Assembly (NCBI GenBank): GCA_965242865.1
Contig: CBDETK010000013.1
Location: 3,424,001 to 3,488,000, forward strand
Source: Candidatus Latescibacterota bacterium
Lineage (GTDB): Bacteria > Latescibacterota > UBA2968 > UBA8231
Reading direction: 5' to 3'
Length of the DNA stretch: 64,000 bases
A program made the translations under genes and the position numbers. The notes beneath the pieces are model-generated. The model was not told the origin of the DNA, searched no databases, and was given only the letters and a program-made list of their open reading frames with translations. Every line of letters starts with the position of its first letter. Within the stretch, counting starts at the first letter, position 1. Positions 27,750 through 34,581 of this stretch are shown here, one piece after another.

Positions 27750-28505
27750 TCACTCCACGTCGAGGATGTAGCGCGCCAGCGGCGAGAGCCGCTCGGCGGT
27801 TGCCGGCCGCAAGTACGCACGCTGGTCAGTCTGCTGCGGATGCTCGCGGGCGATAAAGGCGCAGTGCAGGGTGCGGCGGGTCTTGGGGCTGAGGTTGCGA
27901 TACGAACTGTGCCAGAGGCTGCCATTGAACACGGCCACCGAGCCCGCGCGGCCCGTCAGATGCACTTGCTCTGGATGATCGGCTAGGGGATCGGCCACGT
28001 GGTCCACTACCCTGCCGGGTGTGAGGTGGCTGCCCGGAACGCAGCGGGTCGCGCCGTTGGCTCGGGCGAAATCGTCGAGCATCCACATGGAGTTGACCAC
28101 GTGATACGCGCCGGGCGCGTTGGGCTGCCCCCAATCCATGTGCAGGGACTGCAAGCCGCCGCCGATCCGTGGATCGTGCCCGTTGAGCGAGTGCAGCTTA
28201 AACGGCCGCTGCAGCACGTGGAAAACCGCCATCAGCAGGGTCGGTTGCAGGTACACCGCGTCGAAGACAGCCCCCTTGTTGACTAGATCGGCGAGGCGGC
28301 GCACCCCCGCCATTTGGGCGACCTCTATGCCGGCTTCGTCGCCTTCGCGGGCAAAGATCGCTTCAAAAGCGCGGCGCAACTCGGCCAGCCAGTCGGGCGC
28401 GATGACCTCTTCTAAGATGATGAAGCCGTGGGTGTCCAGCGCGCTGCATTGCGCGGGCGTTAGCGGCTGGGGGACGAAGCCCCGTTGCAATAATTCGCGG
28501 TCCAT
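27750..28505 (-). CDS. Phytanoyl-CoA dioxygenase (PhyH) family Fe/2OG dioxygenase
   Basis: LHMD (HxD), NGATRCVPGSH, LWH. Confidence 0.9.
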   Translation of the reverse strand: MDRELLQRGFVPQPLTPAQCSALDTHGFIILEEVIAPDWLAELRRAFEAIFAREGDEAGIEVAQMAGVRRLADLVNKGAVFDAVYLQPTLLMAVFHVLQRPFKLHSLNGHDPRIGGGLQSLHMDWGQPNAPGAYHVVNSMWMLDDFARANGATRCVPGSHLTPGRVVDHVADPLADHPEQVHLTGRAGSVAVFNGSLWHSSYRNLSPKTRRTLHCAFIAREHPQQTDQRAYLRPATAERLSPLARYILDVE

Positions 28506-28509
28506 TTGC

Positions 28510-29673
28510 TTAACTACCGGCTCGTCGTGTGAATTTGCACAGGGCGGTCACGCCGCGGCGGATGTGCTCTTCCGAGGCGGCGATGGAGACGCGCACGTGG
28601 TCGCGGCACATCTGGCCGAAGGTGCGGCCCGGCGCCACGGCCACGCGCTGCTCTTTGAGGAGCCGGACGGCAAATTCGCCGGAGTCCATGCCCGCCGCAG
28701 CAATGTCGATCATGAGGTAAATCGCGCCGCCTGGGGTATAGCGGTACAAGTCGTATTCTCTCAGGATATCGAGGGCCAAGTCGCGGCGGCGGCCATAGAT
28801 GCGGCGCATGTCGGCCACGGCGTCTTGCAGGCTGTCGAGCGCATCGGCGGCCGCGAGTTGGGAAAAGCCCGTGCCGCACGAGACAAAAGGCTCTTGCAGC
28901 TTGGCGGCCAGTTCAATGTACTCGGGGTGGGCGCGGGTGAAGCCCACTCGGTAGCCGGTCATGGCGTAGCTTTTGGACATGCCGGAGACGATGATGGCGC
29001 GTCCGTCGGCGTCGTTGAGCAGAGCGCTGTGATGCGGTTGATCAAAGACGATTTGGCCGTAGATCTCGTCGGACAGCACCCACAAGTCGCGGCGCTGGGC
29101 CCACTGCATAAGCTGGCGCATGAGCGTCGCGTCGTACACTTGGCCGGTCGGGTTGGAGGGCGTACAGAGCAAGAGGAGCTTGGTGCGCGGGCTGACGAGG
29201 CGGTCCATCTCGTTGAGGTCGGGCAGAAAGTGGTTTTCCGCTCGCAAATTGTAAAAGACCGGCTGGCCGTGAGCCATGGCGACGGCCATCTCGTAGTTGG
29301 GCCAGCCCGGGTCGGGCAACAGGACCTCGTCGCCCGGGTCGAGCAGAGCGAGAAAAGCGGTCGCCACGCTCATGACGGCCCCGGGGGTGACGAGGATGTT
29401 TTCGGCGGTGGTCGGTACGCCGGTGCTGCGCTCAAAGTAGCGAGCCGCGGCCGCGCGCAACGCATCGACGCCGGCATTGGGGACGTACTTGGTGTGGCCG
29501 GCGCGCACGTAGCGGCAGGTGGCTTCGACAATGGGCGCGGGCGTGGCAAAATCGGGTTGGCCTACTTCGAGGTGGATGACCTCGCCCGTTTTCTCGACCG
29601 CCCAAGCCAAGTCCATGATCTCGCGGATGCCCGAGCGAGGGAGCGACGCGGGGATGCGGGCGAAAGGCTTCAT
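28510..29673 (-). CDS. PLP-dependent aminotransferase class I/II
   Basis: GQPDF, PSNPTG, SDEIY, SKSYAMTGYRVG. Confidence 0.95.
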   Translation of the reverse strand: MKPFARIPASLPRSGIREIMDLAWAVEKTGEVIHLEVGQPDFATPAPIVEATCRYVRAGHTKYVPNAGVDALRAAAARYFERSTGVPTTAENILVTPGAVMSVATAFLALLDPGDEVLLPDPGWPNYEMAVAMAHGQPVFYNLRAENHFLPDLNEMDRLVSPRTKLLLLCTPSNPTGQVYDATLMRQLMQWAQRRDLWVLSDEIYGQIVFDQPHHSALLNDADGRAIIVSGMSKSYAMTGYRVGFTRAHPEYIELAAKLQEPFVSCGTGFSQLAAADALDSLQDAVADMRRIYGRRRDLALDILREYDLYRYTPGGAIYLMIDIAAAGMDSGEFAVRLLKEQRVAVAPGRTFGQMCRDHVRVSIAASEEHIRRGVTALCKFTRRAGS

Positions 29674-30467
29674 CGGATGTGGATGCCCGGGCCGGTCGCG
29701 CCGATCATCTGCACGGTGTTGTAAATAGACGCGGGCGTTGAGGCGCCGGTGACGCCGGTGATGCCTTCGCTGCGCGCGACCTTGAGGTCAATGCCCGGGC
29801 CTTGGGCGTGGATTTCGACGATGGCTTCGCTCCATGCGGGGCTTACCAGCAACAGCGAGTGGGTGCGGTCGAAGCCAATGCCGGCGTACGCAATGGCGGC
29901 GTGGGTATTGACGTTGCGCGGGAAGAGCGGGCAAATGCCGCGCGTCGGGCCGTCGTAGAGGACGGTTTCCTCCTCGATGTCGTCGGGGCTGAGGCCAGTG
30001 GCCGCGCAATCGACGTTGTGCGGGGGCTTTTTCATCACCACATCGACCGACTCCCACACGTCGCGGTTTTCCAACAGCGCGTCCATGCCGACCACGCCGC
30101 CGTGCGGGACAAAGGCGCGGGTGCCGGCGCGGTGGGTCGTCTCTTCAAGGGTGGATTCGATGGCTGGGTCGGCCAGGGCGGTCACCGAAATGAACATGTA
30201 GTTGGTTTTTTCGAGGATGGTGCGTCCCCACCGGCGGGTGACCTCGGGGTGGGCCATCTCAACGACGAGGTCGGGCTGGCGCGCGGCAAAGTCGCCCAAA
30301 TCCGCTAGGCAGAGGTCGCCGGGGAGGTCTTGGACGGCCGCGGCTAGCTGATCGTGAACGAAGACGACTTCCATGCCGTTGTCTGGGTCGGCGTCTATCA
30401 TCGCGTGGACGGCTTGGCCGATCTGACCGTAGCCGATCAGGCCGATGCGAGTCGGGTTTTGGCGCAT
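29670..30467 (-). CDS. Aspartate dehydrogenase-like (DUF108) oxidoreductase, divergent
   Basis: GYGQIG, VVEMA, GGVVGMD, LYDGP...FPRNVN; GAGGAG RBS. Confidence 0.7.
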   Translation of the reverse strand: MRQNPTRIGLIGYGQIGQAVHAMIDADPDNGMEVVFVHDQLAAAVQDLPGDLCLADLGDFAARQPDLVVEMAHPEVTRRWGRTILEKTNYMFISVTALADPAIESTLEETTHRAGTRAFVPHGGVVGMDALLENRDVWESVDVVMKKPPHNVDCAATGLSPDDIEEETVLYDGPTRGICPLFPRNVNTHAAIAYAGIGFDRTHSLLLVSPAWSEAIVEIHAQGPGIDLKVARSEGITGVTGASTPASIYNTVQMIGATGPGIHIR

Positions 30468-30516
30468 GGTTTGGCTCCTCAAAACGGGTGAATCGGGAGA
30501 AGCGAATATAGGCACT

Positions 30517-32922
30517 CTATTTGCGCTCGGCCATTTTGCAGACCCAGATGCTGATTTCGTACAGCAGGAGCAAGGGCAGGGCCATTAGGAGCTGGGAGAC
30601 CGGGTCCGGCGGCGTGAAGATCGCGCCGAGGACGAAGATGCCGATGACGGCATAGCGGCGGATACGGCGCATCCGCGCCGCGGTCAGCACCCCGACCTTG
30701 GCCAAAAAGAGCGCCAGCACCGGCATTTCAAAGACGATGCCAAAGCCCGCGATGAGCCGCAGCACAAAGCCGATGTACTCGTCGGCCGCCCATTGCGAGG
30801 TCATGTCGGGCGGCTCTAGGGCGAGGAAAAAGCGCAGCCCGAGCGGGAGGACGATGGAGTACGCGATCAGCGCGCCGACCGAGAAGCAGAGGACGCTCAG
30901 CGAGATAATGGGCACCATGAGCTGTTTCTCGCGCTGCAAAAGCCCCGGGGCCACAAACCGCCAGACTTGGTAAAAGACCACCGGCAGCGCGAGCAACAGC
31001 CCCCCGACAAAGGCGATTTGCAGGCTGATGAAAAAGTACGTCATGGGCCGGAGGGCTTGCAGGCGGCGCGCTGGGGGCAGATCAGCCGGGCGCGCGTCCG
31101 GGGTGGGCGCAGCGTCGGGCAGGCCCAACCACTGGCGCACCAGTTTTTCAACGGCCCGCACCGCGCCCGAGGATTGCTGGCTCTCCAAGCTGAAGACGGC
31201 TTCTTCGTAAGGCCGGGTCAAGATCTGCATGATCGAGTCCGAGAAGGCAAAGCAGAGTACCGCGCCCACAGTGAGTGCGCCGAGGGCCTTGAGAATGCGC
31301 CAGCGGAGTTCTTCGAGGTGGTCGAGAAAGGGCATGTTGGCTTCCCGGGGCGGTTCTGGGTCGGGGAGGGGTTCGGGTTCTGCTGCTGGTTCGGGTTCGG
31401 GTCGCGGCTTGCGGAAGCGGGCGACGAACGCGCCGAGGGCGACGAGCAGGCAGCCGTAAGCGAATAGGTCGCCGTGCCGCGTGTAAAAGGTCGCCGGCTG
31501 GCCGACCGGCACTGTGGCGACCGCGACGGCTGGCGTGAAGAGGTCCGTTGCCTCGTAGGTGCGGCCAAACGGGTCGATGAACAGGGAAATGCCGGTGGTG
31601 GCTGCGCGGGCGATGGCCGTGCGGTTTTCAATGGCGCGCATGGCGTTGATGAGCGCGTGTTGGTAAGGCCCGGCGCTGCGGCCAAACCACGAGTCATTGG
31701 TGATGTTGACCAACACGCGCGCCCCGGCCGCCACGTGCTGGCGCACGAGCGCGGGAAAGATGGACTCAAAGCATATTAGCACGGCAAAGGGATGCCGGGG
31801 ATGGGCAAAAACCGCGCGTTCTGTGCCGCGAGCGAATTCGGCCGGGCCGAGGTCGCCGGTCAGGCGGGTCCAGTCGATGGCGCGCAGCAGGGGGATGGCG
31901 TCGCGGTAGGGCGTCCGCTCGCCAAAGGGCACTAAGTGCATCTTGGCGTACCAAGGCAGGGCGGTGGCCCCGGGCTGGACGAAGAAGGCCGCGTTGTAGT
32001 TGGCGTGCGGTGCGCCGGTGAGCACGGGAATGTCGAGCTCCTCGACGAGGGCTTGGACGCGGCCTCGGCAGCCGGTCCGACGCCCGGGATCGCACGGCAG
32101 GGCGGTTTCCGGCCAAACGAGCAGCTCGGGGTCGCGCTTGGCCGCTTGGCGCGACAGGGTGGCGAGGGCCGAGAAACTGCGCTCCAGCCCATTTGGCCCC
32201 CACTTGTCGGCGTAGGTGGTGTTCGGTTGGATCAGGCCGATGCGCAGGCCCTCGGCTGGGACCGCGGTCGCCAAGGCGCTTTGAGCGTGGAGCCAAGGCA
32301 AGAGATAGCCCAAGGCAACGCCCCCGAGAAAGATGCGCCGCTCGACGAGGGCCAAATAGATCAGCGCGTTGAGGCCGACGACCCAGCAGGACACGCCAAA
32401 GACCCCGGTCGCGGTGGCGTACTGGATGAAGTGGGGCAGGGCGGCTTGGCTGTGCCCCAGCAAGAGCCAAGGAAACCCCAGCTCCCCGAGCGAGAGCAGA
32501 TACTCTTGCCCGGTCCACAACACAGGCAGCAGCGCGAGTGCCTTGGTGCCCCACCGGGTCGCGAACACGCAGAACAGCCCGGTGCAGAGGCCGGTAAAAA
32601 GGCCCAAATAAGCGGCCATCAGTCCGGTGCCCGCGACGACCGCGGGGCCTCCGCCTTGGGTGAAGGCCACCCAGTACAGGGACAGCAGGTTCCAGACCAA
32701 ACCGCTGATCCAGCCCGCGGCCAAGCCAGCTTTGAAGCCGCGATCTTTCAGGGCGAGCAGCAAAGGCACCAAGGCGCCATGGGCCCAGAGCGGATGATGG
32801 AGAACGGCGAGCGGGTGATCCGGGTGGTTGGGAAAGGCCAGCGCGAGCAAGGCCCCGCTTAGTGCAGCGAGCAGCAGGCGATACCGCGGGGTTAGGGCTA
32901 GGACGAGGCGCGAGTTAGACAT
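30517..32922 (-). CDS. lnt-tatC: Fusion of apolipoprotein N-acyltransferase (Lnt) and twin-arginine translocase TatC
   Basis: Lnt: GFPW..LG, WPET, KMHLVPFGE, ICFES, NITNDSWFG. Pro/Glu linker. TatC from 31335: MPFLDHLEELRWR, YQVWRFVAPGL, FEMP, TPPDPVSQ. No intervening stop. Confidence 0.9.
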   Translation of the reverse strand: MSNSRLVLALTPRYRLLLAALSGALLALAFPNHPDHPLAVLHHPLWAHGALVPLLLALKDRGFKAGLAAGWISGLVWNLLSLYWVAFTQGGGPAVVAGTGLMAAYLGLFTGLCTGLFCVFATRWGTKALALLPVLWTGQEYLLSLGELGFPWLLLGHSQAALPHFIQYATATGVFGVSCWVVGLNALIYLALVERRIFLGGVALGYLLPWLHAQSALATAVPAEGLRIGLIQPNTTYADKWGPNGLERSFSALATLSRQAAKRDPELLVWPETALPCDPGRRTGCRGRVQALVEELDIPVLTGAPHANYNAAFFVQPGATALPWYAKMHLVPFGERTPYRDAIPLLRAIDWTRLTGDLGPAEFARGTERAVFAHPRHPFAVLICFESIFPALVRQHVAAGARVLVNITNDSWFGRSAGPYQHALINAMRAIENRTAIARAATTGISLFIDPFGRTYEATDLFTPAVAVATVPVGQPATFYTRHGDLFAYGCLLVALGAFVARFRKPRPEPEPAAEPEPLPDPEPPREANMPFLDHLEELRWRILKALGALTVGAVLCFAFSDSIMQILTRPYEEAVFSLESQQSSGAVRAVEKLVRQWLGLPDAAPTPDARPADLPPARRLQALRPMTYFFISLQIAFVGGLLLALPVVFYQVWRFVAPGLLQREKQLMVPIISLSVLCFSVGALIAYSIVLPLGLRFFLALEPPDMTSQWAADEYIGFVLRLIAGFGIVFEMPVLALFLAKVGVLTAARMRRIRRYAVIGIFVLGAIFTPPDPVSQLLMALPLLLLYEISIWVCKMAERK

Positions 32923-32980
32923 CGGCAGTGGGGGGTAAGGTGCAACAATAATAGAAGGGAGGCCGGGGCCGAGCAAGGTG

Positions 32981-32997: not shown

Positions 32998-33100
32998 TAT
33001 ACATTGGGTGCGTCTAGTGCTCGGGGTTCGTGGGGGCTAGACGCTACACTCGCGTGGTTTTTTTGCTACAGCTTTCGCTTTGCCCAAGGAGGAACGCGCC

Positions 33101-33820
33101 GTGCCAACGCAAACTCAGCCCATTGACTACGACTTTGCCGCCCGCATTGTGGGCGAGGGCCCGCCCACCCGCCCGGACGAGCTGCCGCGAGAGCGGCTGG
33201 CGCGCTTGGGGCCGCAGGCCCTCAAGGACCAAGAGCTGCTGGCCGTAGCTTTGGGGACGGGGTATCGCGGTCGGCCCGTGATGGACTTGGCCGAGAGCAT
33301 CCTCGCCGATTACCCCAAGGAATCGCTGGTGGACCTCGATTTGGGGCAATTGAGCCGGATCAAGGGGCTGGGCAAGGCCAAGGCCGGGGTCTTGGTCGCG
33401 GCGTTTGAACTGGCCCGCCGCGGGTTGCACAAGGGCTTGGGGGTGCGCCCGGTGATTAGTGCGCCCGGCGACGCGCTGTCCATGCTTTCCGACATCAAGG
33501 ACCAGCAGCGCGAGCACTTTCTCTGCCTGTATCTCAACGCCCGCAATCAGGTGATCCACAAGGAGGTCGTGTCCATCGGCAGTTTATCGTCGGCCATCGT
33601 GCATCCGCGCGAGGTTTTTCGCACGGCGGTTTCGCAGGCTGCGGCCAGCGTGATATTGGCGCACAACCATCCCTCCGGCGACGTGTCGCCCAGTCAGGAC
33701 GACATCAACCTGACGCGGCGCTTGGTGCAGGCCGGCGAGATCATGGGCATTGACGTGCTCGACCACCTCATCATCGGCAGCGACGATTTTCTCAGCTTGA
33801 AGGAGCGCGGCTTGATATGA
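33101..33820 (+). CDS. radC: RadC (JAB/MPN domain) protein
   Basis: PRERL, HhH IKGLGKAKA, VHPREVF, AHNHPSGD..PS..D, DHLIIG; AAGGAGG RBS before GTG. Confidence 0.93.
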   Translation: MPTQTQPIDYDFAARIVGEGPPTRPDELPRERLARLGPQALKDQELLAVALGTGYRGRPVMDLAESILADYPKESLVDLDLGQLSRIKGLGKAKAGVLVAAFELARRGLHKGLGVRPVISAPGDALSMLSDIKDQQREHFLCLYLNARNQVIHKEVVSIGSLSSAIVHPREVFRTAVSQAAASVILAHNHPSGDVSPSQDDINLTRRLVQAGEIMGIDVLDHLIIGSDDFLSLKERGLI

Positions 33821-33897
33821 AGAGCGAAAATTGTATTTGCTCGGCAAAAGCCTATATTACTGACGAGTGCAGCAATCTACACGAGGATACCCCAGCG

Positions 33898-34581
33898 ATG
33901 AAAGAAGAGAACAGCCACCTGATCCCGGTGTACATTTTCGACATGTACTCCTATCCAAACGCTGAGCAGGGTTTGGGCCTGCCGCAGAAGTACTTGGTTT
34001 TGCTCAAGGGCAAGGAAAACAGCGTAGTCCCCATCACGATCGGCCACTTTGAGGGCCAAGCCTTGGCGATGGCGGTCCGCAAAATCGCCTTGCCGCGCCC
34101 CCTGCCGCACGATCTGTTGTGCAACCTGCTCAAGCGAATTGACGCCGTGGTCCGCAAGCTGGTGGTCCACACCCTCAAAGAGGACGTTTTCCATGCGTAC
34201 CTGCTGGTCCAAGCCCAGGGCCAGTCCTTCTATCTCGACTGTCGCCCCAGCGACGGCATGATCGTGGCTACGCTCTTGGGCGTACCGCTCTTTCTAACCC
34301 CAGAGGTAATGGAGGCGGCCGGCCAGCCGCTGGAGCACTCCGACCCGCCCGAAGCGGCCAAAGAAGAACCAGCCCCGGCCCCCGAGGCGGCCCCGGAGGT
34401 GCTCGCCGAGGACAAAGGGGCCGCGAGGAAGGCGGAGGCGTTTGTGGACCCGCAGACCGGCGAGCCAATAAGCCAGTTGGAGCAGCTCAAGGCGCATTTA
34501 GATTGGCTCATCGCCCAAGAGGCCTACGAGCAGGCGGCCAAGGTCCGCGATCGCATCAGCGAACTGGAAGCCAAAGGCTGA
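33898..34581 (+). CDS. Bifunctional nuclease (DUF151) with C-terminal UvrB/UvrC motif
   Basis: PITIGHFEG, RPLPHDL, DCRPSDG; EAYEQAAKVRDRI. Confidence 0.88.
   Translation: MKEENSHLIPVYIFDMYSYPNAEQGLGLPQKYLVLLKGKENSVVPITIGHFEGQALAMAVRKIALPRPLPHDLLCNLLKRIDAVVRKLVVHTLKEDVFHAYLLVQAQGQSFYLDCRPSDGMIVATLLGVPLFLTPEVMEAAGQPLEHSDPPEAAKEEPAPAPEAAPEVLAEDKGAARKAEAFVDPQTGEPISQLEQLKAHLDWLIAQEAYEQAAKVRDRISELEAKG

Follow-up and report, generated by a model that had tools for sequence, protein, structure and literature searches.

In a 64,000-nucleotide stretch of the genome of a Candidatus Latescibacterota bacterium (contig CBDETK010000013.1, positions 3,424,001 to 3,488,000; referred to here as the window), one minus-strand gene encodes the apolipoprotein N-acyltransferase Lnt and, without an intervening stop codon, TatC, the core protein of the machinery for twin-arginine translocation (Tat). 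Many genomes of one Candidatus Latescibacterota class share this layout. By the sequence features tested, each half appears to be a regular member of its family, and the combination is what is new. We think it probable that the gene is a topologically permitted fusion of two translationally coupled neighbors, in which both halves keep their general jobs and which is held in place by a ratchet.

A single open reading frame holds Lnt and TatC

The minus-strand open frame spans 30517..32976 (819 aa) when counted from the first TTG. The ATG at 32920-32922 is the likely start of the fusion gene, because a database form of the protein (P0002; 801 aa, 100% identical) opens there and the N termini of homologues align there. 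The parts of the gene are listed below in window positions; AF2 is AlphaFold2 and pLDDT its predicted local distance difference test score.

30517 to 32922, minus strand: whole lnt-tatC fusion gene; ATG 32920-32922, stop TAG 30517-30519, 801 codons
32923 to 32976, minus strand: in-frame stretch upstream of the ATG, 18 codons from the first TTG; probably untranslated, as the database protein and homologues begin at the ATG
31414 to 32922, minus strand: Lnt module, membrane domain plus periplasmic nitrilase-type domain; from Pfam, TIGR00546, structure alignments, and the AF2 model (pLDDT mostly 80-96)
31336 to 31413, minus strand: tether, 26 residues, Pro/Glu-rich, cytoplasmic, predicted to be disordered; from the translation, the AF2 model, indels, and split relatives
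31333 to 31335, minus strand: ATG/Met heading the TatC module, an internal Met in the fusion; aligns with Met1 of Aquifex TatC (4B4A) and is the start codon of unlinked outgroup TatC
30520 to 31335, minus strand: TatC module, complete, 272 residues; from PF00902, TIGR00945, and the 4B4A alignment

A first-pass annotation, made from the sequence alone, had described an open reading frame (ORF) of about 800 aa with Lnt and TatC in frame and no stop between them, and had pointed to the motifs WPET, KMHLVPFGE, and ICFES, a Pro/Glu linker, and a full TatC from 31335. Translation of the 801 codons bears out each of these features, with a Met at 31333-31335, and both families score above their cut-offs.

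The junction is present in independent assemblies

Contigs from public runs that cover 31100-31700 came from four runs in four studies. The contig of run X1, which may be the source sample, matches exactly over this whole interval, and run X4, from another study, supplies a contig without differences over 31220-31573. In a third study, a 26-kb contig (run X9) spans the junction; it shows 20 substitutions and lacks 9 nt of the tether (at 31374), and in the fourth study (run X5) the tether carries a 3-nt insertion (at 31379). Public studies in which sequence of the organism occurs include sponge and marine metagenomes. The first-pass annotation had proposed mapping raw reads across 31330-31440; independent contigs bridge this region, and their indels keep the frame.

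An artefact of assembly or base calling could in principle have removed a stop or shifted the frame, since homopolymer errors are possible in long-read assemblies and the junction has short runs of C and of G close by; no evidence for such an artefact was found. However, the tether indels of 9 nt and 3 nt keep the frame and contigs of other studies bridge the junction, one of them without a difference; assembly error was therefore set aside. The same open frame is found in dozens of independent assemblies, and we consider the chance of an artefact negligible.

Both halves retain the features of their families

In the 819-aa numbering, the Lnt half matches Pfam LNT_N at residues 40-205 (95.3 bits against a cut-off of 27.1) and CN_hydrolase at residues 247-491 (94.4 bits against 23.2); it also scores 313.4 bits with the NCBIfam model lnt (TIGR00546; cut-off, 132.9). 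It aligns to residues 10-500 (of 516) of the E. coli Lnt chain in 5XHQ, including the region past the nitrilase domain, and to residues 33-500 of P. aeruginosa Lnt (5N6M), with WPE, K.HLVPFGE, and C-F-E in register with both structures. E. coli Lnt has a Glu/Lys/Cys triad (E267, K335, and C387) and a further invariant residue, E343 (PMC5500888). All four have equivalents in the fusion. The Glu of PFGE corresponds to E343 (E335 of P0002) and is invariant among the 23 fusions aligned, and the triad residues are placed by alignment as follows.

32107 to 32109, minus strand: catalytic Glu (WPET), equivalent to E. coli Lnt E267; E272 of P0002, invariant in 23/23 fusions
31942 to 31944, minus strand: catalytic Lys (KMHLVPFGE), equivalent to E. 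coli K335; K327 of P0002, invariant in 23/23
31771 to 31773, minus strand: catalytic Cys (ICFES), equivalent to E. coli C387; C384 of P0002, invariant in 23/23

Judged by these active-site residues, the Lnt half should be an ordinary, catalytically intact enzyme.

The TatC half matches Pfam TatC (PF00902) at residues 552-801 in the 819-aa numbering, over the entire profile (1-208 of 208; 233.4 bits against 25.1), and the NCBIfam model tatC (TIGR00945; 208.3 bits against 132.7). It aligns to residues 1-44 and 51-233 (of 249) of Aquifex TatC (4B4A), starting at Met1, and the Glu of H-L-E-E-L-R aligns with E15 of E. coli TatC. In the 2026 Tat evolution review, F94 and E103 of E. coli TatC are given as key twin-arginine-binding residues (PMC13673990). 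Their equivalents, matched in an alignment to E. coli 9DZZ chain A from residue 53, are F656 and E665 of P0002, both invariant in 23/23 fusions. These features are consistent with a complete, ordinary TatC of six transmembrane (TM) helices. Two TatC features can be placed on the DNA.

30928 to 30957, minus strand: motif F-V-A-P-G-L-L-Q-R-E, whose Phe and Glu are the F94 and E103 equivalents (alignment to 9DZZ chain A)
31066 to 31203, minus strand: ~46-residue insertion within TatC's first periplasmic loop; residues 45-90 of the TatC query, which have no counterpart in the alignments to Aquifex and E. coli TatC

The loop insertion has low confidence in the AF2 model (pLDDT of <50 at P0002 residues 583-592 and 601-629). 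In the fusion alignment it is present in rows of the window's own family (f1) and absent from rows of families f2 and f4.

The tether is predicted to be a disordered cytoplasmic link

The AF2 model, built on 23 fusion sequences, has a mean pLDDT of 75.6 and a predicted TM score (pTM) of 0.61; it is confident for Lnt and moderately so for TatC. The last Lnt helix (486-502) is followed by a basic R-K-P-R stretch, then by the tether (P0002 residues 507-530; pLDDT of <50, no secondary structure), and helices are predicted throughout the TatC part (531-800). A complex prediction of the Lnt part against the TatC part returned a score of 0.00; controls were not run, and we count this result neither way.

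Lnt has eight TM helices, with both its N terminus and its C terminus in the cytoplasm (PMC5500888). The eight-helix membrane domain and cytoplasmic C terminus are probably kept in the fusion, the orientation being that of the solved homologue. The chain would then have ~14 TM helices, 8 from Lnt and 6 from TatC, with the tether on the cytoplasmic face. The first-pass annotation had argued that such a fusion is topologically viable. This view gains support from the cytoplasmic C terminus of Lnt (PMC5500888), from the alignment of the fused Lnt as far as residue 500 of 516 and of TatC from Met1, and from TatB-TatC fusions that transport (PMC5102672).

Among the 33 of 40 fused loci that have the Lnt anchor motif used for these statistics (the other 7 were left out), tethers are 12 to 72 residues long, with a median of 28, and are composed of 16% Pro, 15% Glu, 13.5% Ala, and 11.5% Asp. 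Tether sequence and length vary freely among fusions, and no conserved motif is present.

An exposed, disordered tether, as in the AF2 model, might be expected to be cut, and one chain could be made and then cleaved there by a cytoplasmic or membrane protease into two ordinary proteins. The tether is, however, cytoplasmic and has neither a signal-peptidase site nor a motif that is conserved, and Pro/Glu-rich stretches are poor protease substrates. We regard cleavage as very unlikely.

Fused genes are common throughout one Candidatus Latescibacterota class

A search with the TatC part against longer database proteins gave 793 matches, and the best 120 were checked for an Lnt domain. The Lnt CN_hydrolase domain was present in 118 of these 120, at TatC identities of 42 to 100%. 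The first-pass annotation had suggested a domain-architecture search in relatives; the same Lnt-plus-TatC layout in 118 of the best 120 long TatC proteins is far beyond chance. Close relatives in named records are metagenome-assembled genomes (MAGs), mostly of Candidatus Latescibacterota and some labeled Gemmatimonadetes; a contig scan with clade-specific TatC patterns showed no isolates among the named records of close relatives.

Public annotation gives fusion proteins of 770 to 980 aa (P0018, P0029, P0034, P0063, and others) no label beyond "apolipoprotein N-acyltransferase" or hypothetical. In a survey by name, the clade would seem to lack tatC.

We surveyed 140 genomes of the phylum (completeness of ≥85%), reading junctions directly in fetched loci and classifying them by tblastn. 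In the window's genus, lnt and tatC are fused in 24/28 genomes; in the other 4 (G015, G016, G017, and G024; ~71 to 73% identical), an in-frame stop splits the two genes. Fused and split forms occur side by side in the rest of family f1. A stop-free match crosses the junction in at least 27/29 genomes of family f2 and at least 20/21 of f4, and in family f3 lnt and tatC are adjacent yet separate. Other classes of the phylum have Lnt frames of the usual 515 to 550 aa, and tatC is unlinked to lnt in 3/3 outgroup genomes.

Split relatives have a translationally coupled lnt-tatC junction

In 29/30 split loci with lnt and tatC no more than 300 nt apart, no stop interrupts the tatC frame anywhere in the spacer; for the other two frames this holds in 10/30 and 18/30. 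An upstream in-frame ATG is present in 28/32 split loci, and in 27 of these it lies ≤25 nt from the end of the lnt stop, as an ATGA overlap in 10 and as ATGnnTGA in 5. The open frame and the ATG at the lnt stop indicate that tatC is translationally coupled to lnt and that TatC of this class carries an N-terminal extension. In split loci these extensions open with M-[TS]-[DE]-[EQ] and are acidic and of low complexity; unlinked outgroup TatC starts directly with M-P-F-L-[DE]-H-L-E-E-L-R-W. The extension of the class (~16 to 70 residues; for example, L112-L115 and L125-L129) sits a few residues ahead of the segment that aligns with the signal-peptide-binding N terminus of E. coli TatC.

In position and character, the fusion tether appears to correspond to the spacer plus the acidic TatC extension of split relatives. 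Species sister to the window's clade have the lnt stop, one further codon, and then the ATG, all in one shared frame, so a single stop-to-sense change would suffice for fusion.

A gene tree needs four or more switches between fused and split

We built a FastTree tree from the concatenated Lnt and TatC parts, with the tether excluded. Identical rows, and rows at ≥93% identity with the same state, were collapsed (from 142 to 106 to 74), leaving 40 fused, 32 split, and 2 outgroup rows. Left out were four partial loci (L059, L098, L108, and L124), three with TatC and no Lnt in the stretch (L142, L143, and L146), one without TatC (L066), and the window duplicates L001 and L003. The tree needs at least 4 changes between fused and split, and the figure is the same when the starred branches alone are trusted. 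Fused rows form four clades: f2 plus f4 (27 rows), with split f3 as its sister; the window's clade of 9 rows, to which three split rows are sister; and two small clades nested among split rows, L034 with L130 and L035 with L063. Four gains would be the shortest account on this tree, which was rooted on the outgroup.

The fused frame has also been retained. In the window, a single mutation could turn any of 8 of the 26 tether codons into a stop; none of the 27 non-redundant f2 and f4 rows has a stop in the tether. Upstream starts have become uncommon: 14/40 fused loci still have another in-frame Met within the 30 codons that precede the Met of TatC.

Initiation at the internal TatC Met

The ATG at the head of TatC is present in 39/40 fused loci. 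TatC might accordingly be made chiefly from the internal ATG at 31333-31335, with the full-length chain a minor by-product: the codon is the start of unlinked outgroup TatCs, and the genome uses Shine-Dalgarno (SD)-led initiation, with an SD-like 4-mer at 35% of first ATGs and 7.5% of internal ATGs. In the window, however, no SD-like 4-mer lies at −16 to −8 of the TatC Met. Across relatives one is found in 7/40 fused loci, which is not above the 7/32 split loci, where the Met is also internal, and these counts lend no clear support to a conserved internal ribosome-binding site in the fusions. The E/D/G-rich residues before the Met reflect the acidic extension. We also dropped the invariant Met as proof of internal initiation: it is equally conserved in split forms that start upstream, so its conservation is independent of use as a start.

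The exceptional fused locus, L130 (genome G133), has ATA (Ile) in place of the TatC ATG. The M-T-D-D that its sister L034 keeps upstream has changed there as well, so both old starts are lost, and G133 has one tatC. In G133 TatC could therefore hardly be made other than in the long chain, and the fusion protein must be functional. Ribosomes translating a fused lnt meet no stop, so a full-length chain must be made. Separate products as the main output of the gene are, in our judgment, improbable.

Copy number and Tat lipoproteins argue against a dedicated machine

The fused tatC is the only tatC in the 6.0-Mb assembly. As the first-pass annotation noted, there is no tatA or tatB nearby; the sole TatA/B-family match (C13:1450650-1450802; 75 bits against a cut-off of 21) lies ~2 Mb from the window. 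A TatA-family partner for TatC thus appears to be present as an unlinked gene. Single copies of lgt and lspA are also unlinked to the fusion gene. The copy count that had been proposed returned no second tatC but did return a second, standalone lnt of 523 codons (C13:1075705-1077276, plus strand). Its product shares 38% identity with the fused Lnt and has intact WPE-type, K.HLVPFGE, and C-Y-E motifs. This second lnt is found across the genus and in f3 and was not found in f2 or f4; in 5/5 genomes tested (members of f2 and f4, plus G133), nothing but the fused Lnt scores above the lnt cut-off. The second lnt lies tail-to-tail with a gene for a 441-aa leucine-rich-repeat protein.

We searched the raw ORFs of the genome for Tat and lipobox patterns by regular expression, with reversed sequences as the control. 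There were 370 lipobox ORFs (154 in the control), 7 matches to a loose Tat-plus-lipobox pattern (7 in the control), and 10 matches to a strict twin-arginine pattern (0 in the control). One of these 10 has a clean lipobox, and 1 more is likely false, being a multi-TM protein. The clean candidate (C13:988092-990956, L160, plus strand) is a 954-aa QrcB/QrcC-like molybdopterin and Fe-S subunit of the alternative-complex-III/Qrc type that carries a twin-arginine motif and, after it, an L-S-G-C lipobox. Tat lipoproteins thus probably exist in this genome, but they are few. The first-pass statement that some lipoproteins are Tat substrates agrees with the literature, in which they are a recognized substrate class (PMC13673990).

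The first-pass annotation had proposed that the fusion is a dedicated machine for the export and maturation of Tat lipoproteins. The results argue against this. A sole TatC must serve every Tat substrate; where the fused Lnt is the sole Lnt, as in the five genomes above, it must acylate all lipoproteins; Tat substrates are not enriched in lipoproteins by the loose pattern of the census; and lnt and tatC are separate in 32/72 non-redundant relative loci, including sister species in the same genus. The split relatives show that function does not require fusion. A stop and a separately translated tatC in relatives had been named beforehand as a finding that would count against the fusion itself; such relatives exist, and the fusion in the window stands.

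Does the fusion hard-wire a functional coupling?

A broader idea is that Lnt and TatC work as a complex throughout the class and that the fusion hard-wires a functional or physical coupling. In one variant, Tat-exported lipoproteins would be handed to Lnt after Lgt and LspA; in another, Lnt would be a structural partner of a Tat receptor that has a single TatA/B-family gene. Several observations fit: lnt-tatC adjacency is class-wide and absent in 3/3 outgroup genomes, the tree needs at least 4 changes of state, the f2 and f4 rows seen are fused without exception, the TatA/B-family gene count is one, and the 954-aa QrcB/QrcC-like protein is a plausible member of the recognized class of Tat lipoproteins. 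There is also the precedent of Lnt and Ppm1, in which split partners interact (PMC3460810). However, Lnt acts last, after Lgt and LspA, whose genes are unlinked; in many genomes neither the fused Lnt nor the fused TatC has a second copy beside it, so they cannot be dedicated; loose Tat-plus-lipobox candidates do not exceed the control; split genes suffice in close relatives; and the tether is of low complexity and variable length, as a passive link would be. We regard coupling as possible but unlikely.

A related and still less likely suggestion, which we offer as speculation, is that the Tat receptor complex has Lnt as a built-in partner, by translational coupling and assembly in split species and covalently in fused ones, and that the acidic Pro/Glu segment, lying within a few residues of the twin-arginine binding site, tunes signal-peptide capture. 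If so, lipoprotein maturation would have its final step wired to the Tat translocase, and this would be the first natural fusion of TatC to a non-Tat enzyme with a functional consequence.

A proposed route to fusion and its retention

Our preferred explanation, the merger of coupled neighbors, would run as follows. The lnt stop is lost at a translationally coupled lnt-tatC junction, giving one frame, either by a point mutation or, where the genes overlap out of frame, by a 1-nt indel in the unconserved Lnt tail. On merger the acidic TatC extension would turn into a tether, and the chain would be expected to insert normally, because the Lnt C terminus and the TatC N terminus are both cytoplasmic. 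Each half most likely continues its housekeeping work on all substrates, with the fusion setting 1:1 co-synthesis and co-localization. Once fused, the coupled TatC start may decay; a stop in the tether would then deprive the cell of its only TatC, and this would act as a ratchet.

The proposal builds on the architecture, its conservation and recurrence, the coupled junction in split relatives, and the intact active-site and binding residues, all of which were observed directly. From the sequences we infer the rest: a single translated chain, two activities, the absence of a specific hand-over between the halves, and the ratchet.

Several points weigh against it. That the product stays in one piece is deduced from genes, and the members seen are all uncultured MAGs. 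The recurrence (at least 4 changes), the long retention in two families, and the class-wide adjacency could equally reflect a benefit of physical proximity. The near-universal Met at the head of TatC leaves room for separate TatC initiation, and the second intact Lnt of the genus would allow the fused copy to specialize. The Tat and lipobox census used regular expressions on raw ORFs and not a trained predictor. The gene tree, a FastTree of these same two proteins, drew warnings about long branches and has only 2 outgroup rows, and it counts changes with their direction unproven.

As a natural chain that includes the cell's only TatC and, in many genomes, its only Lnt, the fusion would mean that a polytopic enzyme of 500 residues is tolerated by the Tat receptor when tethered beside the signal-peptide binding site, and such tolerance bears on current structural models of the TatBC ring. 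Lnt and TatC are both envelope-biogenesis proteins and drug-target candidates that are normally studied apart; if the two halves cooperate, they would provide a link between Tat export and lipoprotein maturation. The clade also offers a natural series, from unlinked genes to adjacent and coupled genes, an in-frame stop, fusion, and fusion without the old start codons, in which the origin and locking-in of gene fusions can be studied.

Comparison with known fusions

A close parallel is Ppm1 (Rv2051c) of M. tuberculosis, in which an N-terminal Lnt is likewise joined by its cytoplasmic C terminus to the product of a downstream gene, with fused and split forms among relatives (separate ORFs in M. 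smegmatis and C. glutamicum); the Lnt domain of Ppm1 stays active (PMC3460810, PMC3850990). The partner there is a polyprenol-monophosphomannose synthase, a soluble or peripheral glycosyltransferase and not a polytopic translocase protein. The separate proteins have been shown to interact by two-hybrid assay, as cited in PMC3460810, whereas the Lnt-TatC pair is known from genes alone.

Haloarchaeal TatCt is, like the fusion described here, a natural covalent TatC fusion of ~14 TM helices. It joins TatC to TatC through two extra TM helices, and both of its twin-arginine sites are apparently inactive (PMC13673990). In Lnt-TatC, by contrast, the partner is an unrelated enzyme, the tether is cytoplasmic, and the F94 and E103 equivalents are kept. 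E. coli TatB-TatC fusions, either engineered or arising spontaneously in mutant libraries, also place a membrane-anchored partner at the TatC N terminus by stop read-through and retain transport; these are laboratory constructs in which the partner is a Tat subunit, and they show partial dominant-negative behavior (PMC5102672). Compared with standalone Lnt (5XHQ/5N6H and 5N6M) and TatC (4B4A and 9DZZ), each fused half is full-length with its catalytic or binding residues in place; the differences are the single chain and the extra ~46 residues in the first periplasmic loop of TatC.

We found no published description of an Lnt-TatC fusion in the open-licence PMC and bioRxiv literature, and the terms "Lnt," "Latescibacter," and "Gemmatimonad" did not occur in the available main text of the 2026 Tat evolution review (PMC13673990). 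We regard the gene as a recurrent natural gene-fusion experiment, in which positive evidence of a new mechanism was not seen.

Neighboring genes

Downstream of the fusion gene lie an aspartate-dehydrogenase-like gene and then an aminotransferase gene; upstream, on the opposite strand, are radC and a bifunctional-nuclease (BFN) gene. None of these neighbors has an evident link to export. The fusion stop TAG is followed by one base and then by the GTG start of the aspartate-dehydrogenase-like gene (30513-30519, minus strand), which overlaps the aminotransferase gene at 29670-29673. The RadC-like JAB-domain gene (33080-33820, plus strand) and the gene for a BFN protein with a UVR motif (33817-34581, plus strand) are divergent from the fusion gene and overlap by 4 nt. 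With gene packing tight throughout, stop-loss fusions may be easy in this genome.

Across relatives, lnt-tatC is the only neighbor pair that persists. The radC gene lies beside lnt in 40/72 non-redundant loci, all of family f1, and the dehydrogenase gene lies beside the pair in 10/72; both counts are lower bounds, as the fetched flanks were short. A 534-aa ORF at 28120-29724 (plus strand) runs opposite the aminotransferase and dehydrogenase genes; in DNA of 65% G+C, this frame is most likely open by chance and no gene.

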